DNA from: a virus
Lineage: Duplodnaviria; Heunggongvirae; Uroviricota; Caudoviricetes
Reading direction: 5' to 3' (one strand)
Length of the DNA stretch: 64,000 nucleotides
IMG/VR virus record: IMGVR_UViG_647533160_000003
Below, in pieces: positions 3,001-59,147 of this stretch. The notes under the pieces were generated by a model. It had not been told where the DNA came from. It did not search any database and worked only from the letters and a program-made list of their open reading frames with translations. The translations under genes were made by a program, and so were the position numbers. How positions within the stretch are numbered: position 1 is the first letter of the stretch; each line of letters starts with the position of its first letter.

Positions 3001-4570
3001 GGCTCTGGACAAAGCCGATCAGCTTATGGGGCAAATGGGTGAAAGCTCTAAGGCTACGGTATCGTTTGATCAGTCTCTTCGCGATACAACAAAATCGCTA
3101 ACTGATTTGGCTAATGCGGTTCCTAACGAGTTCATCACTCAAGAGATGATCGACAAGGCGAAAAAACGTCTTGAAGACCTCAAAAATGCGACACCTGAAT
3201 ATCGCGAGATGTTTAATCGCCGCAATGTTGAGCAGATGATCTCCACTTGGGCACCGGAGGCGGATTCCATTATTAGTGCTGGCTATACGCCGTCTCGTGA
3301 AGAGAAAGTTGCTGATTTCGAAGACACCTACAACCGCAATCTCAAAGCGTTGATAGAACTTCGTGATAAGGCGTCTGATCCTAAAGTCGTGGCGCTTTAT
3401 ACAAAGAAAATCAATCAACTTATTGCTGCTGGCAATACCGCGCTTATTAAAGAGACGGGGACTGCGACGCAGAAGTTGGCACTGGAATACGAAAACCTGG
3501 CAGAGCAGATCGAAAGCACCTGGACTGATTTGTTTAGTGGCTTAACTGATGTCCTGACTGATTTCGTTATTAACGGGAAGATGAGCTTCTCCAGCCTGTC
3601 TCAGTCCATTTTGAAAGATATCACCAATATGGTCGTGAAGTCGCAGATCACGCTGCCTCTAATGAACATGTTGGGGATGGGAACCACCGCAGCTGGTAGT
3701 TCACAGAGTGGTAATTTGCTGACCGGGGTTGCTTCCGCCGTTGCCAATCAAGGGGTACGAATGGGCAACACTGTTAACGGCGACAAGTCGGTAGGAGAAG
3801 CCACGAAGGAGACGTCCAGTTCGGTAACTGGATTGGGGCAAACGACACAGCAGACCACCAGCGCAATTGGCACAGCAACAAATGCGATTGGTAGCTGGGT
3901 ATCAGGGCTATTTGATAGCACCGAAGCCAAAGATGCTGAGACAAAAGCAGTGAAGGATTCCATCTTCTCGATGCAGAACCTCAGCTCTGTTACCGGTGCT
4001 CTGTCTGCCGCGTTTGCAATGCTTGGAGCTAATGCTTCCGGCTCTGGTAATAAGTGGTTGAATTTCGGCGCGACAGTTGCATCTGGGTTGGTTTCAGTAT
4101 GGGCAGGTGGTGGTTTCGACAGTGTGACATCAAGCTCTGCTAAAACCGCAACTAGCAGTGTGGCTGACGGAACTAAAGGCATTCCTGCAATCCCGAAGTT
4201 TGCAAATGGAGGAATATTCGGAAAAGACGGCGTGATCCCGCTCCGGGCATACCAGAAAGGCGGTATTGCTAACTCACCTCAATTAGCGTTGTTTGGGGAA
4301 GGTTCTATGAATGAGGCGTATGTTCCATTGCCTGATGGCCGAACAATCCCTGTAACGCTCAGTACCGATGGTATGAGTGGAGGCGGAAATGTTCTTTCTC
4401 CTGTATCAATTGAGATCAACGTCCATAGTGACGGTAGCACGACAGAATCCGGCGATACAGAAAGCATATGGAACAATGCTGCTAAACGGGTGAAAGCCGT
4501 CGTACTTGAGACTATCGCTCAAGAAAAACGCCCTGGCGGATCACTCAACCCAAACACTCAACGTAACTAA
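5..4570 (+). CDS. tail tape measure protein (1521 aa)
   Basis: Very long ORF directly upstream of lambda-type tail-tip genes; coiled-coil-rich composition with central hydrophobic segments and Gly/Ser-rich C-terminal part. ATG at 5 is at the window edge so upstream context is unseen. Confidence 0.8.
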   Translation: MSQNVEFILSLEDKQFTASIDRAGKLLTRFGEQVTKPAQKIQTFERSLGSVARIIGVLESKLDSTADKLQDVAAGFELASDATRKMRGNITSLNSGLKALIERVDTTTSSVDKLTASLRKVQSELNDFSDWATYASKSASRFGTEVKEASASVSGMNTRLNTTTKRLSNWGVTTTQAAEGLKKVREQMDEVIGRQQLISKPVRVRTSGSGDGGSGSRQRSGASGHSGKSNEGGMFSGLRGNIFLLGEIGDAARTVTDIMFGWQKPIVEAAAEMERMRVMLRGLNKEKSNPGQAAADDMKYIVDMAQNAPFAMQALTDSFVKFRSAGLDPTDGSLKALVDSVARFGGDSELLKRAAVAVQQMSGKGVVSMEELRQQLGEAVPNAMQAMADAAGITMGELTKAVASGTVEAKQALSLMFVGLRAENENAAKDMMQTYTGALAQLQTSFTLFADRVGQAGYLDSLSKGMKELASIMNSAEGISFANSLGSGLTTAIDGLRQLAQWLAKNQELVINLGKVVAAMVAFKLMRAGIMGVVGAGSQMVSTFATMATAIQTPFNLGATAVTRFNRAARMGLAPIPSLIFAIRGAITGLKGAFAGLTAFIAANPIGAAFTVATVAVAGLITYMTMLRSETSKVVDEIRKIPEAMTAAKRAQMAEYKARLEQQITQKEQELKSGEKVVYGPGMAGTTVKINQDERKRIENELNDLRKKRDKTTGAIERGDIAVAKRLAKDAAESQIEKIREENRDFAATFAKARQEALEKIQKINDDDSLSDDEKNKLLAPLRETVNKSYLEPAQKLVDSLSSRKNATEKQIATLNDQLEKAKKEGNTEQIKKLQGSIRGYQENLEVVAQELTQAEFERDNAAKTGKGVMSNQGTVLGLGTTDKAAQKALAQYMRNQMDSATYQRTLPDGTPMMDFEGKPIIGPKQLKTQLNLQKASSASSLEKMSDEERAAAIAALTKAREQDAAAAEKAAQRSANASQRAAKKEQAAQQKLAAGYQKALDKADQLMGQMGESSKATVSFDQSLRDTTKSLTDLANAVPNEFITQEMIDKAKKRLEDLKNATPEYREMFNRRNVEQMISTWAPEADSIISAGYTPSREEKVADFEDTYNRNLKALIELRDKASDPKVVALYTKKINQLIAAGNTALIKETGTATQKLALEYENLAEQIESTWTDLFSGLTDVLTDFVINGKMSFSSLSQSILKDITNMVVKSQITLPLMNMLGMGTTAAGSSQSGNLLTGVASAVANQGVRMGNTVNGDKSVGEATKETSSSVTGLGQTTQQTTSAIGTATNAIGSWVSGLFDSTEAKDAETKAVKDSIFSMQNLSSVTGALSAAFAMLGANASGSGNKWLNFGATVASGLVSVWAGGGFDSVTSSSAKTATSSVADGTKGIPAIPKFANGGIFGKDGVIPLRAYQKGGIANSPQLALFGEGSMNEAYVPLPDGRTIPVTLSTDGMSGGGNVLSPVSIEINVHSDGSTTESGDTESIWNNAAKRVKAVVLETIAQEKRPGGSLNPNTQRN

Positions 4571-5030: not shown

Positions 5031-5729
5031 ATGGGAATTAAAGCTGATATTCAGAGCTTATCTCCCTCTGCACTCATTGAGTTGTTCGTACTGGATATGT
5101 CGAACACAACTTCAGGGGGGAAGCTATTCTTCCACGCCGGAACAAACGAACTGATGCAACCGGTCGTCTGGCAAGGAGTGACATACGAGCCGTGGCCAAT
5201 CAAAGCATCAGGCTTTGACAAAACTGGCCAGGGAACGTTGCCACGTCCAAAAATTCAGGTATCGAACTTTGCCGGAACCGTCTCTGCGGAAGTTCAAGCG
5301 AACGACGATCTTGTTGGCTGCCGCATTATTCGCAAGATGACGCTGGCTCGCTTCCTCGATGCCGTTAATTTTAAAGACGGCAACCCAACAGCAGATCCAA
5401 ACCAACATTTCCCGGATGAAATGTGGTTTATCGAACAGAAAACTCTCGAAACTCATCAGGTTGTCGAGTTTGAATTGTCCAGTGTGTTCGATTTGATGGG
5501 GGTGCAACTGCCGTATCGTCAGATCATTAAAAACACCTGCCCGTGGAAATACCGAGGGCCAGAATGCGGCTATACCGGTCCATATTTCGACAAAAATAAC
5601 CAGCAGACGTCTATGTCTGGTGCGGATTACTGCACAAAACGTTATGACGCCTGTAATGCGCGTCGGAATTATTTTGCCGACGGTGTGATCCATTTTGGCG
5701 GGTTTATTGGAGCTACGCGGTATGGGTAA
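5031..5729 (+). CDS. minor tail protein, lambda gpL-like (233 aa)
   Basis: VVWQGVTYEPWPIKASGF, ARFLDAVNF and CPWKYRGPECGYTGP blocks match lambda L as recalled; ATG at 5031 with AAGGA upstream preferred over the track start at 4998. Confidence 0.75.
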   Translation: MGIKADIQSLSPSALIELFVLDMSNTTSGGKLFFHAGTNELMQPVVWQGVTYEPWPIKASGFDKTGQGTLPRPKIQVSNFAGTVSAEVQANDDLVGCRIIRKMTLARFLDAVNFKDGNPTADPNQHFPDEMWFIEQKTLETHQVVEFELSSVFDLMGVQLPYRQIIKNTCPWKYRGPECGYTGPYFDKNNQQTSMSGADYCTKRYDACNARRNYFADGVIHFGGFIGATRYG

Positions 5730-6519
5730 TAAAGCAATCCCTGAGCTTGGCTCTGACGTTATGCAGCAAATCTATCTCTGCGCCATAAATCGCTACCCTA
5801 ATGAAGCGTGTGGCTTTCTGGTTAGAACTAATGGCGACAAATATCGCTTTATGGAAGCGCGGAATGTTTCGGAGAACCCGCAGAACACTTTTGTAATGCA
5901 CGTTGACGACATTATGGCGGCAGAGGATGCGGGTGATGTTATCGCAATCTGGCATTCACATACTGATGAATCAGTAGAAGCATCTGATGCCGATCGTGCA
6001 GGCTGCGAAGCGACGGAAGTTCCGTGGATGATTCTGGCTATTCGCAAGAATGTTGAGGGAGACGCCACTTTCCATTTTAGCGAGATGAATGTGATCACAC
6101 CTGATGGTTTCGAAATGCCATACCTGGGCAGACCGTATGTATTTGGCGTATTCGATTGCTGGATGTTGTGTCGGGACTATTTGAAGCGTGAGTTTAACGT
6201 CGAACTAAACCCGAACGCACATCTGCATATTCCATCGTGGTACACCGGCGATAAAGACATTCTCGACCAGAACTACCGAAATGAAGGATTGGTACGGCTT
6301 GCGCCCGGAACAGAGCCTCAACGTGGGGACATCTTCTTTATCCAATACGGGAAAATGCCTGACCACTGCGCTGTTTATATCGGCGATGGAATGATTCTTC
6401 ATCACCAGATCGACCGCCTAAGTTGTCGTGCTTATTACGGCGGAATGTATCAGAAACATACGACGCATCACTTGCGTCACAGAGACTTGCTCAAGGGAGA
6501 TGAGACGTGTCTGAGTTAG
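5722..6519 (+). CDS. tail assembly protein, lambda gpK-like (JAB/MPN plus NlpC/P60-like)
   Basis: HSHTDESVEASDADRAG (JAB/MPN-like metal site) followed by a Cys/His-containing C-terminal half; position between L and I. Start 5722 ATG chosen over in-frame TTG at 5695. Confidence 0.65.
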   Translation: MGNKAIPELGSDVMQQIYLCAINRYPNEACGFLVRTNGDKYRFMEARNVSENPQNTFVMHVDDIMAAEDAGDVIAIWHSHTDESVEASDADRAGCEATEVPWMILAIRKNVEGDATFHFSEMNVITPDGFEMPYLGRPYVFGVFDCWMLCRDYLKREFNVELNPNAHLHIPSWYTGDKDILDQNYRNEGLVRLAPGTEPQRGDIFFIQYGKMPDHCAVYIGDGMILHHQIDRLSCRAYYGGMYQKHTTHHLRHRDLLKGDETCLS

Positions 6520-7100
6520 TTCATGTGCAGCTTGGCGGCCCTATGGCCAAACATTTTGGCCGCCACTGGCATCTAAAGGTTCGTAATACAAAACAGGCTA
6601 TGGATTTAATTGAGGCCAACAAGCCTGGGTTTAAAGCATGGATGAAGCGCAATATCAAAACCTATGACAGATACCACATCCAGATCACCAATAAACAGGG
6701 CCACAAGTGGTCTGTGGACGAGAGTGAATATCAGATGATGGGGCAGTCTGAAAACATTGCCAAAATTCGCATTACCCCTGTTCCGCGAGGAAGCGGCGGA
6801 TCTGCTTTTGGGTGGTTTCAGACGGTTGTTGGAGCCACTTTATTGGTGGCATCTTTTTTTGGCTTGCCCGCTCTTGCCCCTCTCGGTTTGTCACTGATGA
6901 TGGGCGGTATAGCGCAAATCATATCTCCGCAAGCCACTAACGAAAGTGTGAGGCAGGCGGATAACTCGAACTCTTATTACTTCGATGGACCTCAAAACAC
7001 AACAAACCAGGGGAACCCTGTACAGCTTATCTATGGCGAGGAAATTTTAGTTGGCTCACAGGTCGTGAGTTCTTCTATCACCATCGACCAGCTTATGTAA
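6507..7100 (+). CDS. tail assembly protein, lambda gpI-like (197 aa)
   Basis: Position between K-like and J-like genes; hydrophobic C-terminal half; GTG start with AAGGGAGA upstream. Confidence 0.5.
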   Translation: MSELVHVQLGGPMAKHFGRHWHLKVRNTKQAMDLIEANKPGFKAWMKRNIKTYDRYHIQITNKQGHKWSVDESEYQMMGQSENIAKIRITPVPRGSGGSAFGWFQTVVGATLLVASFFGLPALAPLGLSLMMGGIAQIISPQATNESVRQADNSNSYYFDGPQNTTNQGNPVQLIYGEEILVGSQVVSSSITIDQLM

Positions 7101-54174: not shown

Positions 54175-54389
54175 GTTTACAGTAAAATTTATATAAGTTA
54201 GTATCTACCTATCATGAAGATTTTTATTGAATACTTGTTACTCATCGTGTCAATAGCTTTTGTCATCGACTGCATTTTCACTGGTGTCATTCGTAAAGTC
54301 TTTTCCCCGGTGAACGACGTAGTCATAAACGCTTTGGCTATCGTGCTCGTATTTAATTCAGCATTTGATGTAATCAAAGAGGTGGCAGC

Positions 54390-54725
54390 ATGAAGGCCAT
54401 CCCATTCGCGCTGTTGTTCCTTTCTTCGATCGTTGTGGCCGACACCACTGTTTATCAGTGTGAAATGTCTGTAGCCGACGTTAAGAATGGCGCTCTTACC
54501 GACGTCATAAAAGCACCATATGGCGCGATGGTCGTAGACAGCGGCGACCAGTTCTATGTTGTGCGAGACGATCGAGTATTGTCATCCCCATATCTCACAA
54601 ACCGTAATGGCAAATTAACCGGCGTCGGAGAAGACCACTTCGTATACAACAAATACAAGGGCTTCTATGGCGTTCACGCTTCTCAGCAAAGCTACCTTTT
54701 CGATGACTGCAAGGAGGTTGGATAA
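54390..54725 (+). CDS. secreted hypothetical protein (111 aa)
   Basis: N-terminal signal peptide MKAIPFALLFLSSIVVA. Confidence 0.45.
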   Translation: MKAIPFALLFLSSIVVADTTVYQCEMSVADVKNGALTDVIKAPYGAMVVDSGDQFYVVRDDRVLSSPYLTNRNGKLTGVGEDHFVYNKYKGFYGVHASQQSYLFDDCKEVG

Positions 54726-54937
54726 TGGCATTAACACTGGCAGGTCTGGAAATCGAGAAAACAAGCGGATACTGGCGTGCTAAGGGTTTCAAGCAGCCTG
54801 GCATTCTTGAGCGTCTGGAACGTGAAGATGGGTATATCGTCCACCAGCGGCGTGAATGGCGTATGTACGATCCAGAAACAGGAAAACTGACTACAAAAGC
54901 CGGAACACTTTGGGGTCTGTTGAAGAAAATACACTAA
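54725..54937 (+). CDS. hypothetical small protein (70 aa)
   Basis: Start overlaps preceding stop; followed by 22-bp perfect palindrome at 54946-54967. Confidence 0.35.
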   Translation: MALTLAGLEIEKTSGYWRAKGFKQPGILERLEREDGYIVHQRREWRMYDPETGKLTTKAGTLWGLLKKIH

Positions 54938-54983
54938 ATGCAAACTGACTGCGGCACGTGCCGCAGTCATATTTCATAGTCGT

Positions 54984-55518
54984 CACCGCTGACAGCATAC
55001 ACAATCAACTGCCGCTGATAGCATATCGAGAGTCTATCTCACCGCTCACAGCATACTTTACTCGATTTTTTACCGCTGACAGCATACTTAAGACATTGCA
55101 TGAATAATATGTCCCGGTATGGGTATAACCAGAACAAAATTACCGCTGGCAGCATACGAAGGTCTGACATATACCATTAATTACCGCTGATAGCATATCC
55201 AAACAAAAATTCCTCAATAAAACACCGCTGACAGCATACGTTCTATCAGAGAGCAGCAGGCAATAAATGCCTTTCACTACAAGCAATCAGCGCAATGGCA
55301 ATAGAATGTTAGTGAGCGCAAACCTTTATGGAATGCACTCTTCGAGGTTAGTAACCACTGGGGAGGTATGACAGAGCATTGAGTGGTGATAGATGATTAA
55401 CCGCTCACAGCATACGTTTATCTCACTATACCGCTGGTAGCATATCTTTTAACCGTTCACAGCATACTTTTCAGGAAAATAGCCGCTGATAGCATACATT
55501 TCACCGCTGACAGCATAT
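54984..55518. repeat. iteron array downstream of repA (12 direct repeats, core ACCGCTGACAGCATAC)
   Basis: Copies start at 54985, 55012, 55041, 55072, 55142, 55183, 55224, 55400, 55430, 55452, 55482 and 55503 with irregular spacing and single-base variants (GAC/GAT/CAC/GGC/GGT); last copy abuts the repA stop. Confidence 0.8.
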
Positions 55519-56612
55519 CAAAGCAGTTTGAGACTATTGGAAAGGATCTCAATCATCTTGATATTTTCAGGCGTCAAATTCTGCGAAAGTTCAGTTATCT
55601 TGTTGATAATGTTCTGTTTAGCATCAATTTCCCCGGCTTTCTCATCTGGTTTTTTGGGTTCGATGTCTTCAGGTTTTGGCGGTGCGACTTTGAGTTTTGG
55701 ATTGCGGCTGTGAATCTGGATATAGATCGACCGCCCCCGCTTAATCTCGCTATATTCGAGATAGCCCAAATCTTGGAGAGCTTTTAAGCCGTTACGTATA
55801 GTCTGATTCTGCGAGCTGACATTCCTGCTACTCAAATTGAGTCGCGCACGCAATCGAGCAAGCGATACCGGCGCAGGCTTGGTTGGAAGACTTTCGATGA
55901 AGGTGTACAGAGCCTGTGCTGTTTCTTTGCGTGGTAGCTTATTGATAACCTTTAACTGCAAAAGAACCTTATGGTCAAAGCGATATAGTTCGGCCAGCTT
56001 CGGTTCTGCATAGAACACCACCGTATCTTTCTGCTCGTTGTAGTCCACGCTATTGATGAGGTGCACCATCAGAAGCGAGATCTTGTTAGAGCCGTCGACG
56101 TTCTTTTCTTCATACGTTCTCTGGAAAGACAGAGTTGTACGCATGATCTTCAAAAGACTGTTTGTAAGCCGGTCGCGGAGTGTTTTGCGGATCTGTGACG
56201 ATGGATAGCCACAAAACTTCGCAAATTTCGTGATGCTTAACTCGACACGACCGTTAGGTTCGCCGTATTCTGCCAGCGAACGCACAACGCCCACCCACGT
56301 TTTGAAATCATGATCCATGTCGAGACGAGGACCGGTTATCTTGATATCGGAATAGCCTTCAGAACGGGCTACTTCGAGCTGAACAAGCTCCTTTGAAGCA
56401 TCGATCTCATTTGGCTTGTTACGCTTGCTGTATTTTGTCCCCTTGAGCGTGGGCACGAACAACCCCAGCCGCATCAACGCAATTGGTTGGACTGTATTGT
56501 TGCTATTAGGGACAAGTTCCCCTGTGTACAATTCAAGGGAACCTTCTTCAAAGTTGTCGAGATTATCTTCTACTTCTTTGTTATTTTTACCTTTTTTATT
56601 TTTTGTGGACAT
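55518..56612 (-). CDS. repA: iteron-type plasmid replication initiator (RepA-like)
   Basis: Minus-strand gene flanked on both sides by the same direct repeats and by a GATC/DnaA-box region; start set at Met41 of the track ORF (MSTKNKKGK) because the upstream 40 codons read through the iterons. Confidence 0.6.
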   Translation of the reverse strand: MSTKNKKGKNNKEVEDNLDNFEEGSLELYTGELVPNSNNTVQPIALMRLGLFVPTLKGTKYSKRNKPNEIDASKELVQLEVARSEGYSDIKITGPRLDMDHDFKTWVGVVRSLAEYGEPNGRVELSITKFAKFCGYPSSQIRKTLRDRLTNSLLKIMRTTLSFQRTYEEKNVDGSNKISLLMVHLINSVDYNEQKDTVVFYAEPKLAELYRFDHKVLLQLKVINKLPRKETAQALYTFIESLPTKPAPVSLARLRARLNLSSRNVSSQNQTIRNGLKALQDLGYLEYSEIKRGRSIYIQIHSRNPKLKVAPPKPEDIEPKKPDEKAGEIDAKQNIINKITELSQNLTPENIKMIEILSNSLKLL

Positions 56613-56632
56613 GTGGACACCTTTGTCATTCA

Positions 56633-56734
56633 ACCGCTGACAGCATACTTGATTTGCCGCTGGCAGCATACCAAAAACAGTTGGCAGCATACGGCGAACC
56701 GTTGACAGACTATCAATTACCGCTGGCAGCATAC
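56633..56734. repeat. iterons upstream of repA (3 good plus 2 degenerate copies)
   Basis: ACCGCTGACAGCATAC 56633-56648, GCCGCTGGCAGCATAC 56655-56670, ACCGCTGGCAGCATAC 56719-56734, plus degenerate copies near 56681 and 56698. Confidence 0.75.
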
Positions 56735-56774
56735 ATGAACATGGCTTCAGACCAGTCGTGGCGCGGCTTACAGC

Positions 56775-56847
56775 GATCGGGGATCTTATTTGATCTATAC
56801 AAGGATCTATCTATGGATCTCTTTATTAGGATCTATCCTGTGGATAT
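56775..56847. promoter_or_regulatory. origin-like region: six GATC sites in GGATCT-type short repeats plus DnaA-box-like sequence
   Basis: GATC at 56775, 56782, 56792, 56804, 56816 and 56830; complement of 56838-56846 is ATATCCACA (8/9 to TTATCCACA); adjacent to upstream iterons. Confidence 0.55.
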
Positions 56848-56933
56848 GTGAATAATTAAAACAGGCATTTACTACCTTCGGCGCACCTGGTGAGTTATCG
56901 TTGCCTCGGCTAACAATCACAGAAAAATGACAT

Positions 56934-57578
56934 ATGGATCTAAAACGCACGCGCTGGGTTCGTCGTCTTGAAAACGGCTCCTACACTATCGAATCAAATT
57001 CCAACCTGAATAAGCAGAAGTTGCTTTGTGACATCTGCGGTATAGCGGCGAAGTGCCCGATCTACGAAACCAGAATTAAACTTGATAAGGCTGGTGTGAA
57101 CTTTCATTTAAACAGTTGCATCAGGTACGTTCCATTGCTCGCATTTCGTAAACCGATCATCGGATTGGATGCACCCTACTTCAACACACTCCGTTCAGGT
57201 GTGACGTGGCGAGATCGTTTATCACCAGACAAGCTGATTTGCCTTGTATCCGCAGACACAGGGAAAATCATCCGTTTTGGGAAAGTAGACAAGATTTACT
57301 CAGGCCCAGTAGACGAAATGTTGCGGAAACACAGCCGGTTTAATCATCTCTGTATGGGGGGTGAGAAAATCGAGAAGGTAGAAGAAGTGATCCGCAAATC
57401 CTACGGACACTTCCTGACCAAAGATAGCCTGCTCACCGCAATCTACATCAGACATGTAAAACGTGAGTTCGACCTCGAATACCACAGTGAAGAAGAGCTT
57501 AACCTTGTTGATCCACGTCCAAAAGCTGGCGTCATAAGCATAAACGCAGCGCGTAAAAAGCCCACTGACGCGCTGTAA
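56934..57578 (+). CDS. hypothetical protein (214 aa)
   Basis: ORF next to the origin; several Cys residues (CDICGIAAKC); no motif recognised. Confidence 0.4.
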   Translation: MDLKRTRWVRRLENGSYTIESNSNLNKQKLLCDICGIAAKCPIYETRIKLDKAGVNFHLNSCIRYVPLLAFRKPIIGLDAPYFNTLRSGVTWRDRLSPDKLICLVSADTGKIIRFGKVDKIYSGPVDEMLRKHSRFNHLCMGGEKIEKVEEVIRKSYGHFLTKDSLLTAIYIRHVKREFDLEYHSEEELNLVDPRPKAGVISINAARKKPTDAL

Positions 57579-57832
57579 CCCTCCAGATCGTATATTGGCG
57601 TAGATAGAATCTACGCCTCCTCAAAATAGCTCTCATAGCGTTCTACAGTGATTCTGTCTTATTTTTAGTCATACAGACAAGCAAACTTGCGCCACAATAA
57701 ATAGGTATATACTTACTTATAAATTTTGTATATTAAGGTGCTAGTTTCATTCCTAACATACCGTTATGCATAGTTGTTTACCTTCTCATTGCTCTTAGAA
57801 TTTGTATCAAAATAACCACAAAGGAAAAACAC

Positions 57833-58918
57833 ATGACTTTGCCATACGGCGTCATTTCTGACTGCCACTACCACAAATGGGATGCGTTCTCCACGACGAA
57901 CGCTGAGGGGCTTAACTCCAGACTTGAAATACAGTTGGAGGCAACGAAAGAAGCAGCCATCGCCATGAAGAAGGCCGGTTGTAAGTACATGTTGGTTGCC
58001 GGTGATACATTTCACGTCCGAGGAACTGTGTCCCCTTCTGTTTTGCATTACGTAACTGAAACGTACAAGTGGATTATCAACGAGCTTGATCTGACAGTAG
58101 TAATGCTGGCCGGTAATCACGATCTTGAAACCAACGATTCAGTATATAGCGCCAACGCAGCAGCATCGCTGAGTTCTATCGGCGTGGTAATCGTATGTGG
58201 CAAACGCCCACACTCAATAAAAATTGGTGATGTGACTGTCCACCTGATTAGCTGGCGTAACAATCATGCGGAGCTTATCAGCGATCTGAAAGCATTACGT
58301 AAGAGCGTAGAAGGTGATAATCATGACGTTGTTATCCATACATCCATTAACAAAGCCATACCAACAATGCCTGACGTCGGTATCGATGCGCAGGAGTTAA
58401 AGGATATCGGCTTTCGTCTCGTGCTTAGTGGGCATTACCACAACCACAAAGAGGTCATTCCTGGAGTTATCAGTGTCGGTGCACTGACTCACCAAAATTG
58501 GGGAGATGTTGGATCTCTGGCTGGCTACATGATCGTAAACCCGGACGGCAGTTTCAGTCACTACGAAACCAGTGCGCCTAAATTCATTAACCTGGAAGAT
58601 GATGTTGCTGATGACCAAATTCGCGGCAACTACGTGCGTTTCCGCGCCGTAATTGAGAACGATGAAGAAGGCATTAAGTACCAGAACATCCTCAAAACAA
58701 TGGGTGCAAAAGGTGTCGTGTGCAACTTCATCCGTAAGTCATCAATGATGGAAGGGACAGCCAGCACAACTGAAACCAGCAAAATCGATAGCCTGGGAGA
58801 GTCGGTATCTGCTTATTGCAAGATTGTCCACGATACTGACGGCGGATTTGATTTGAGCAAGTTGGATATTTTGTGTCAGGAAATCCTCACCGAAGCGGAG
58901 AGTTCGGAGGCTGTGTGA
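57833..58918 (+). CDS. sbcD: SbcD/Mre11-like nuclease (calcineurin-like phosphoesterase)
   Basis: Motifs in order: DCHYH, VAGDTFH, LAGNHD, GHYHNH; conserved AAAGGAAAAACACATG initiation region; SbcC-like gene follows. Confidence 0.75.
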   Translation: MTLPYGVISDCHYHKWDAFSTTNAEGLNSRLEIQLEATKEAAIAMKKAGCKYMLVAGDTFHVRGTVSPSVLHYVTETYKWIINELDLTVVMLAGNHDLETNDSVYSANAAASLSSIGVVIVCGKRPHSIKIGDVTVHLISWRNNHAELISDLKALRKSVEGDNHDVVIHTSINKAIPTMPDVGIDAQELKDIGFRLVLSGHYHNHKEVIPGVISVGALTHQNWGDVGSLAGYMIVNPDGSFSHYETSAPKFINLEDDVADDQIRGNYVRFRAVIENDEEGIKYQNILKTMGAKGVVCNFIRKSSMMEGTASTTETSKIDSLGESVSAYCKIVHDTDGGFDLSKLDILCQEILTEAESSEAV

Positions 58919-59147
58919 AGCAAAGTCGTTATGGGAGCTTTCGAGACTTTGCCATCACGATGAAAAGACTTGAACGAGGCCAGACGGTGATGTTTCACAA
59001 GCCCTACCCGCCACAAGGAAATCCCGTAGCGTTTTATCTTGGAAGGTTAACAAGAAAAGGCGTATTGAGGCGCAGATCCTTCCCGGCGCATACGGAGTTC
59101 AGATTGAAAGAAGGCCAAAAGCTAACACACGGTATCAGAGGTGTTAT

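Follow-up and report, generated by a model that had tools for sequence, protein, structure and literature searches.

A P1-type iteron replicon that is very probably the plasmid-mode replication unit of an SSU5-like Escherichia coli phage-plasmid

The window, by which we mean the whole 64-kb stretch of viral DNA that was analysed, contains at 54940–56900 a gene for a replication initiator, repA, flanked on both sides by arrays of direct repeats (iterons). A GC-rich spacer, a cluster of GATC sites and a pair of DnaA boxes follow the array upstream of repA, and a palindrome borders the array downstream of it. The features and the basis on which each was assigned were as follows.

54947–54968, unstranded: perfect 22-bp palindrome GACTGCGGCACGTGCCGCAGTC (24 bp with the flanking T/A), from sequence symmetry and fold
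54986–55239, plus strand: seven distal downstream iterons, from iteron matches and the information profile
55240–55400, unstranded: iteron-free gap of 160 bp that splits the downstream array, without any iteron match
55401–55518, plus strand: five proximal downstream iterons, from iteron matches and the information profile
55518–56612, minus strand: repA, replication initiator of 364 aa, from Pfam Rep3_N, phrog_775 and homology to P1 RepA
56604–56620, minus strand: tandem TGTCCACA TGTCCACA, degenerate and DnaA-box-like (2 mismatches each), straddling the repA start codon
56634–56734, plus strand: five origin iterons (incC-like), from iteron matches and the phasing of P1 incC
56665–56673, minus strand: candidate extended -10 (TGgTATGCT) inside iteron 2, read by eye from the sequence
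56746–56774, unstranded: GC-rich spacer CCAGTCGTGGCGCGGCTTACAGC separating the iterons from the GATC repeats, from alignment with P1 oriR
56775–56833, unstranded: six GATC sites (four GGATCT, one TGATCT, one CGATCG) in AT-rich sequence, from a motif scan
56839–56855, minus strand: two tandem DnaA boxes, TTATTCACATATCCACA, at the outer end of the origin, from a motif scan and alignment with P1

The repA product was 46% identical to the RepA protein of phage P1 over 278 residues (E 4e-86), residues 32–309 being the homologous part, and a tblastn search with it matched the repA genes of P1 and P7. It also matched the Pfam model Rep3_N over residues 118–239 (E 3.9e-9; 37.5 bits, cut-off 22.4) and phrog_775 (E 4.6e-133, residues 11–310), and by sequence it is classified as a Rep_3-family (PF01051) initiator. 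Neither RepA nor its three neighbours matched any NCBIfam entry, no initiator structure in the PDB was matched by RepA or by a six-sequence profile, and a single-sequence AlphaFold2 model of RepA (mean pLDDT 39.7) was not good enough to search for related folds. The start codon was assigned to the ATG at 56612 rather than to the beginning of a longer open reading frame at 56732. In RefSeq the start codon of RepA is over-extended, and the database protein is too long. Comparison of repA with its Klebsiella homologue gave identities of 0.89, 0.98 and 0.44 by codon position, which indicates purifying selection on the gene. Relative to P1 RepA the protein has approximately 12 extra N-terminal and approximately 55 extra C-terminal residues. 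In the alignment this C-terminal tail (residues 310–364) was seen only in SSU5-type elements; it is missing in P1-type RepA and common to SSU5-type initiators only 47% identical to one another.

The iteron, (A)CCGCTGACAGCATAC, is 15–16 bp long and is present in 17 copies in 1.75 kb, all in the same orientation; by the information profile, conservation extends over about 16 bp. When up to three mismatches were allowed, the core CCGCTGACAGCATAC was found 20 times in the window, against 1.19 ± 1.20 times in 100 shuffles (largest 4), and 16 of the 20 matches were plus-strand copies within 54986–56734; the 17th copy, at 56699, has four mismatches. Downstream of repA the iterons start at 54986, 55012, 55042, 55073, 55143, 55184 and 55225 and then, past the 160-bp gap, at 55401, 55431, 55453, 55483 and 55504, the last of them extending 1 nt into the repA stop codon. 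Upstream they start at 56634, 56657, 56678, 56699 and 56720 (spacing 23, 21, 21 and 21 bp, or about two helical turns). An earlier note on this DNA had described twelve direct repeats downstream of repA, and exactly 12 were counted; its 'three to five' upstream iterons are indeed an array, whose number is now settled at exactly five, two of them degenerate.

The gap that splits the downstream array had no match in Rfam, nor did any part of 54300–57600 at E values up to 1, so no known antisense or control RNA is indicated there. A promoter-like match in the gap (55368–55397, plus strand) was at consensus level but not above shuffle expectation. The iteron cores are kept in the Klebsiella phage pJN2-26, while the spacers between them have diverged. 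The first three distal iterons are deleted in phage PhiR41_1, which retains nine control iterons, and these three are therefore dispensable. Gain or loss of iterons in the control array (12 versus nine copies) is a possible route to a change in copy number. An inverted iteron-like site inside repA (56257–56279) was considered as a regulatory RepA site and rejected; it departs from the iteron at two near-invariant positions, and in the Klebsiella homologue synonymous changes destroy its likeness to an iteron.

Beyond the origin iterons the base composition shifts from 58% GC over 56735–56765 to 35% GC over 56766–56860. The six GATC sites, at 56775, 56782, 56792, 56804, 56816 and 56830, span 59 bp, in agreement with the earlier claim of six sites in 60 bp, and make up the richest 75-bp segment of the sequence; the runner-up holds three, and the mean for the window is 3.9 per kb. 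A six-site cluster was also found in Cyrano, SSU5 and pJN2-26. The DnaA-box-like site reported previously, ATATCCACA, is present on the minus strand at 56839–56847, and a second box that had been missed, TTATTCACA, abuts it at 56847–56855 and matches the relaxed TTATNCACA consensus. In P1, JK004 and the Klebsiella relative, a better right-hand DnaA box occupies the position of the degenerate pair that straddles the repA start codon.

Comparison with the annotated oriR/incC-repA-incA map of phage P1 (AF234172) revealed the same order, element for element: incA at the repA stop codon, repA, five iterons, GC spacer, Dam sites and DnaA boxes. The module made up of the spacer, GATC sites and DnaA boxes was 72% identical to P1 oriR, whereas the iteron block was only 42% identical. 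Within this module, 21 of the 29 positions of the spacer and 15 of the 18 positions of the annotated P1 DnaA-binding site were identical, and the six GATC sites align with five annotated P1 Dam sites, P1 having GGACCT at the sixth. The origin iterons are phased 23/21/21/21 here and 22/21/21/21 in P1 incC, and iteron copy 9 of P1 ends at the final base of the repA coding sequence, comparable to the overlap with the stop codon seen here. The sequence of the iteron is unrelated, CCGCTGACAGCATAC here and GATGTGTGCTGGAGG in P1, so that specificity and incompatibility should differ from those of P1. The downstream array here, divided by the 160-bp gap, has 12 iterons compared with nine in P1, and all of them share the orientation of the origin iterons, whereas most incA iterons of P1 are inverted. 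P1 has an adjacent parABS locus, absent here, where the neighbours are the hairpin and a convergent cra gene.

Repeats of GATC are a feature of P1-type origins, and a P1-related RepA between iteron arrays on both sides is also found in the RepFIB replicons (P307, REPI of pColV-K30). Gammie and Crosa are said to have described in 1991 an effect of adenine methylation on RepFIB-type replication. Several database homologues of RepA are named 'RepFIB replication protein A'. The likeness to RepFIB is drawn from descriptions rather than from sequences, and the carrier differs, a non-mobilizable phage-plasmid here and a conjugative IncF plasmid for RepFIB. In common with the locus studied here, the oriS/RepE replicon of the F plasmid (incB-repE-incC) has iterons on both sides of the rep gene and DnaA boxes; its initiator is a Rep_3 winged-helix protein and its copy number is controlled by handcuffing. 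Membership of the Rep_3 family is common to RepE and, by the Rep3_N match, to the RepA studied here, but no sequence similarity between RepA and RepE or other solved initiators in the PDB was detected.

The earlier reading of the locus, a plasmid replicon of the iteron type whose copy number is controlled by a downstream array, is borne out by the Rep_3-family initiator, the homology to P1 RepA and the P1-like order of elements. We conclude with high confidence that 54940–56900 holds a P1-type (RepFIB-class) iteron replicon, with which an SSU5-like E. coli phage-plasmid replicates in its plasmid mode. As part of this best explanation, and with P1 as the model, it would be a theta-type, low-copy replicon that serves plasmid maintenance.

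Elements of the SSU5/Cyrano (pLF82) kind, typed as IncFIB(pLF82-PhagePlasmid), have a phage-plasmid backbone in common with the element studied here. The Cyrano sequence was 98.2% identical to the window up to the cra stop codon and 94.6% identical from 56746 onwards, and the flanks (cra and a 214-aa open reading frame), the six-GATC cluster and the extended C-terminal tail of RepA are shared. In contrast, the Cyrano RepA was only 47.9% identical to the RepA found here, and the SSU5/Cyrano iterons are of a different type, CTATCCACTGTAGTG, with some of the downstream ones inverted. The 1.8 kb at 54938–56745 is a specificity cassette swapped relative to Cyrano. The same architecture was found in pJN2-26, SSU5, JK004 and RCS47, each with an iteron sequence of its own.

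By its position in the sequence, the palindrome marks the left edge of the 1.8-kb cassette that is swapped relative to Cyrano/pLF82. That a perfect 22-bp palindrome borders the array had been noted before, with no function proposed, and holds, at 54947–54968, one base to the right of where it had been placed. The convergent cra-like gene (54725–54937, plus strand) stops 9 bp before it. A terminator scan picked out the palindrome on either strand; its stem is 10 bp long and includes seven GC pairs, the loop has 4 nt, and the folding energy of the RNA is -19.8 kcal/mol. Most probably it acts as a terminator-like hairpin after cra, at the border of the cassette and outside the origin. It may instead be bound by a dimeric protein (it has a CACGTG core) or be a recombination site used in cassette exchange. 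The perfect symmetry over 22 bp, the uniqueness of GACTGCGGCACGTGCCGCAGTC in the window (0 expected), its place at the left breakpoint of the cassette and the weak U-tracts of its tails on both strands, TATTTCATAG and GTTTGCATTT, are consistent with such a site. However, the central G is replaced by T in p503440_100 and PhiR41_1, which breaks the symmetry and leaves a 9-bp stem, and in Cyrano and SSU5 the place after cra is taken by a GC-rich hairpin of unrelated sequence, so that structure rather than sequence appears to be conserved. The Klebsiella relative has no strong hairpin at this position. We therefore consider the protein-binding or recombination site improbable and retain the terminator-like hairpin.

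A further possibility is that the RepA-iteron unit is a relic or an accessory, with maintenance provided by the phage-type replication genes (DnaB-like helicase, DnaE and toprim protein) at another origin. The backbone does carry replisome components of its own, and PhiR41_1 lacks three distal iterons. Against this, purifying selection on repA is strong, and all relatives examined have kept the five origin iterons, the GATC cluster and the DnaA boxes intact. The unit is located on plasmids only, no other plasmid-type initiator is annotated in two stretches that cover approximately 87 of the 112 kb of a near-identical record, and the deletion in PhiR41_1 affects control iterons only, with nine remaining. 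This makes a relic or accessory very unlikely, and the unit is best regarded as the plasmid replicon. The record of the Klebsiella phage pJN2-26 (MZ779062) labels two 20-bp repeats flanking the rep gene as attL and attR, as in an integrated element, but the two are among 13 copies of one iteron at that locus, lie on circular plasmids rather than at chromosome junctions and occupy the positions of the RepA-binding iterons of P1, and this copy number and arrangement refute the label almost beyond doubt.

Identity at the locus was 98–99% across more than 120 plasmid records. Of 5,426 complete E. coli genomes, 119 (approximately 2%) carry the replicon, always on plasmids and in no case in the chromosome. 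The carrier plasmids in these records are approximately 100–115 kb, non-mobilizable, and have phage tail and replisome genes. The sequence anatomy of the replicon, the homology to P1, the conservation among relatives and the exclusive location on plasmids are direct observations. Judged by sequence, the replicon type is very probably IncFIB(H89-PhagePlasmid) of PlasmidFinder. RepA was identical at 362 of 364 residues to the RepA of pAVS0575-B (NZ_CP124485), and repA with the downstream array was 98.2% identical to that plasmid, which is highly similar to IncFIB(H89-PhagePlasmid) plasmids and to pECOH89 (PMC12838234). The RepA of pECOH89 is 48% similar to that of pLF82 (PMC3999498), a figure that agrees with the 47.9% found here against Cyrano. 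A literature search found no published experiment on this replicon and no paper linking 'iterons' with SSU5 or phage-plasmids.

The biochemical steps of the mechanism that we propose are all modelled on P1 by homology. RepA monomers would occupy the five phased origin iterons (56634–56734), the putative monomer binding sites, and host DnaA would bind the tandem boxes at 56839–56855. Together, RepA and DnaA would open the AT-rich GATC stretch at 56775–56833, the presumed Dam-methylated unwinding region, which would need methylation to fire and whose hemimethylated form would be a target for sequestration by SeqA. A dependence on Dam and DnaA, as the earlier note suggested, is a well-founded expectation from the homology to P1. 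By the same homology, replication would also need DnaK, DnaJ and GrpE, and loss of the downstream array would raise the copy number. Genes for a DnaB-like helicase, DnaE and a toprim protein are present on the element itself, so its host-factor needs may differ from those of P1.

Iteron-bound RepA would also repress its own promoter, the origin iterons being the likely site of this autorepression. In P1, PrepA is located in iterons 10–12. A consensus scan of the minus strand detected no canonical sigma-70 promoter within the origin iterons, and autorepression of repA therefore rests on analogy with P1; the extended -10 within iteron 2 is a possible repA promoter. The 12 downstream iterons (54986–55518) would lower the copy number in two ways, through titration of RepA and through contacts with the origin iterons as pairs ('handcuffing'), and would also set incompatibility; the distal seven are presumably part of this incA-like array. 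The hairpin at 54947–54968 probably shields the cassette from transcription units of cra, the operon that converges on it.

The RepA tail could couple plasmid-mode initiation to the DnaB-like helicase or DnaE of the element, or to the lysis-lysogeny switch. The block made up of the hairpin, incA, repA and the iterons could be a discrete exchangeable cassette that recombines at the host-factor module and at the post-cra hairpin; if so, near-identical phage-plasmids could escape incompatibility. The two ideas taken as a pair, the tail as an adaptor to the element's own replisome or lysis-lysogeny switch and the block as an exchangeable specificity cassette, are speculative, and we would give them only a small chance of being right.

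The replicon is an ordinary representative of a well-known kind, with a nearly textbook phage P1 build, and it discloses no new mechanism. Its minor novelties are the C-terminal tail of RepA, limited to SSU5-type elements, and the over-extended RefSeq start codon, and the map corrects database annotations in which RepA is over-long or iterons are labelled as att sites. SSU5-like phage-plasmids are common in E. coli, and some carry blaCTX-M-15 (PMC3999498, PMC12838234). A map at base level, covering origin, control array and initiator, can guide the design of mini-replicons and of incompatibility-based curing. As their iterons are unrelated, H89-type and pLF82-type elements are predicted to be able to coexist in one cell.

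The sequence from 54300 to 57600 was read directly and its ORFs were listed. The sole long gene, repA, is on the minus strand and ends at 55518. When up to 3 mismatches were allowed, the 15-mer CCGCTGACAGCATAC gave 20 matches in the 64 kb window, compared with 1.19±1.20 (maximum 4) in shuffled sequences, and 16 of the 20 were plus-strand copies inside 54986–56734. A 17th plus-strand copy, at 56699, had 4 mismatches. In the information profile of the 17 copies, the conserved unit spanned about 16 positions, (A)CCGCTGACAGCATA(C/T), and the flanks carried no information. The 12 iterons that the earlier note placed downstream of repA were all found, in two groups separated by a 160 bp iteron-free gap, while its three to five upstream iterons proved to be exactly five. 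The cluster of six GATC sites was also present, in the densest 75 bp window of the sequence, and other windows of this size hold at most three. The DnaA-box-like site that had been noticed was found as ATATCCACA, but as only one of two boxes, the abutting TTATTCACA having been missed. A promoter scan of the origin iterons detected no canonical promoter; origin iteron 2 contains only a candidate extended −10.

Features of the replicon and their identity to P1 (GenBank AF234172, which includes a detailed plasmid-replicon annotation)
54986–55239, plus strand, distal group of seven downstream iterons
55401–55518, plus strand, proximal group of five downstream iterons
Starts at 56634, 56657, 56678, 56699 and 56720, plus strand, five origin (upstream) iterons, 23, 21, 21 and 21 bp from start to start
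56633–56734, iteron block, 42% identity to P1
56746–56855, whole host-factor module, 72% identity to P1 (pairwise alignment)
56746–56774, GC-rich spacer, 21/29 identical to P1
56775–56833, GATC block, six GATC sites, 39/59 identical to P1
56839–56855, DnaA boxes, 15/18 identical to P1
56839–56847, minus strand, DnaA box ATATCCACA
56847–56855, second DnaA box TTATTCACA, abutting the first

Read from the ATG at 56612, RepA is 364 aa long. It matched Pfam Rep3_N, the WH1 domain of iteron-plasmid initiators, above the curated cut-off (E 3.9e-9) and phrog_775 over residues 11–310 (E 4.6e-133). The RepA proteins of P1 and P7 were found by tblastn against phage records, and direct BLASTP with P1 RepA gave 46% identity over 278 residues (E 4e-86). 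In the RefSeq annotation (bases 5618–6832 of record L001), RepA is 404 aa with a start equivalent to 56732, inside the origin iterons. The true start probably lies 120 nt further downstream, because the 40 extra codons (56613–56732) run across the five origin iterons without substitutions of a coding type, and the ATG at 56612 has a Shine-Dalgarno sequence, AAAGGTG, ahead of it. Identity to the Klebsiella homologue by codon position was 0.78/0.85/0.72 in the extra codons, with no codon periodicity, versus 0.89/0.98/0.44 in the repA body. The C-terminal tail of about 55 residues (310–364; 55518–55685) is outside the phrog_775 profile; in it, a Pro/Glu/Lys-rich linker leads into two predicted helices. 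Alignment showed that it is common to the SSU5-type RepA of pJN2-26 and SSU5 and absent from those of P1, JK004 and RCS47. Using tblastn, the tail was found in 485 plasmids, 471 of them non-mobilizable, and most of the matches listed were about 100–115 kb; its carriers are almost exclusively non-mobilizable plasmids in the range of about 100–126 kb.

In P1, the incA array comprises nine iterons and finishes on the last base of repA, and the five incC iterons, 22, 21, 21 and 21 bp apart, contain PrepA. A stretch of about 55 bp holds five Dam sites, and the DnaA-binding site is 18 bp long. The window has both iteron arrays, repA, the GATC cluster and the DnaA boxes in identical order, and its last downstream iteron likewise shares one base with the repA stop codon. 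This order and the relationship of the two RepA proteins support the earlier reading of the locus as an iteron-plasmid replicon. There are also differences from P1. The window has 12 rather than nine downstream iterons, which all point the same way as the origin iterons, unlike the mostly inverted incA iterons of P1, and its array is split by the gap. The sixth GATC is GGACCT in P1, the RepA tail is not found there, and no par operon is adjacent in the window. Four other elements are arranged in this way: Klebsiella phage-plasmid pJN2-26, SSU5, Cronobacter phage JK004 and P1-like RCS47. Each carries DnaA boxes and a GATC cluster, then origin iterons, of which four or five were detected under the mismatch limits applied, then repA and, from its stop codon on, a downstream array. 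SSU5, JK004 and RCS47 each have their own iteron sequence, and pJN2-26 alone shares that of the window. Two of the 13 iterons in pJN2-26 (GenBank accession number MZ779062, bases 1378–1397 and 2648–2667) are annotated as attR and attL; most likely, a prophage-finding tool mistook these direct repeats for attachment sites.

Control-array length varies among near-identical elements, as an 87 bp iteron-to-iteron deletion in phage PhiR41_1 (around 4047–4087 of its record versus 54985–55071) has removed the three most distal copies and left nine. Separately, an inverted iteron-like site lies inside repA (56257–56279, minus strand, codons 112–119) and matches origin iteron 3 and its 3′ spacer at 18/19 positions, with a chance expectation near 6e-5 as a rough estimate only. 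Two positions that are near-invariant among the iterons are mismatched in it, and the Klebsiella homologue has not kept the site. RCS47 repA likewise holds an internal iteron-like 14-mer.

Compared with Cyrano, the pLF82 phage, the window was 98.2% identical up to the stop codon of the cra-like gene (54937) and 94.6% identical from 56746 on; across 54938–56745 alignment was limited to weak, protein-level patches. Because identity breaks at this stop codon and at the junction of the iterons and the GC-rich spacer, we infer that the exchanged unit is exactly the hairpin, downstream array, repA and origin iterons. On the same alignment, the rest of the origin, with its GC-rich spacer, GATC sites and DnaA boxes, belongs to the common backbone. 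The swapped cassette fits the two replicon types reported on phage-plasmids of about 110 kb in one strain collection (PMC12838234).

The 22 bp palindrome bordering the array is real, perfect and unique in the window, but lies at 54947–54968, one base further right than originally placed. It starts 9 nt past the stop of the convergent cra-like gene, and in a simple scan was terminator-like on both strands, with a 10 bp stem, 7 GC pairs and a fold of −19.8 kcal/mol. An unrelated GC-rich hairpin occupies this position in Cyrano and SSU5, and folding detected none there in pJN2-26. In p503440_100 and PhiR41_1 a T replaces the central G, and perfect symmetry is therefore not maintained. We read the palindrome as a putative terminator-like insulator bordering the cassette; a role as a protein-binding or recombination site seems unlikely.

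Beyond the origin, a conserved 214 aa ORF that is transcribed away from it (56934–57578, plus strand) matched phrog_2105 (E 7e-132) and had no Pfam match. Its Cyrano homologue is annotated as an ASCH RNA-binding domain protein, and in either type of replicon the ORF keeps its position beside the DnaA boxes. An SbcCD-like pair follows (57833–61064, plus strand), comprising a 361 aa metallophosphoesterase and a 638 aa SMC/AAA_23 ATPase.

The 2 kb region was 98–99% identical in 121 full-length plasmid records, mostly from Escherichia coli and E. albertii and almost all non-mobilizable, and the replicon region was also found in phages PhiR41_1 and CMS-2020a. Among 5,426 complete E. coli genomes, the unit occurred in 119, with all 183 places on plasmids and no chromosomal copies. 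The near-identical pS2-S1K81-2 encodes tail proteins, DnaE, a DnaB-like helicase, ligase, nrdAB and a phage N6-adenine methyltransferase. The carrier is an SSU5-like phage-plasmid. The methyltransferase gene (bases 20986–21579 of pS2-S1K81-2) is outside the window, about 15 kb from the origin. RepA of the window was identical at 362/364 positions to that of pAVS0575-B, a plasmid grouped with IncFIB(H89-PhagePlasmid) plasmids and pECOH89 (PMC12838234), and 47.9% identical to that of Cyrano; pECOH89 RepA is 48% similar to pLF82 RepA (PMC3999498).

The P1 replicon mechanism has been reviewed (PMC5043065) and is annotated in AF234172. By analogy, RepA monomers would bind the origin iterons, and DnaA on the tandem boxes, helped by RepA, would open the adjacent AT-rich region, with firing expected to require methylated GATC repeats. 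The downstream iterons may titrate RepA and handcuff origins, giving low copy number and incompatibility. Work by Abeles and Austin from 1987 is said to be a further source for the P1 mechanism. The replicon, which had not been dissected before, belongs to the textbook family of P1-type iteron replicons and is carried by a well-known group of phage-plasmids. Should the pS2-S1K81-2 methyltransferase be specific for GATC, methylation of the origin by the element itself could proceed without host Dam.
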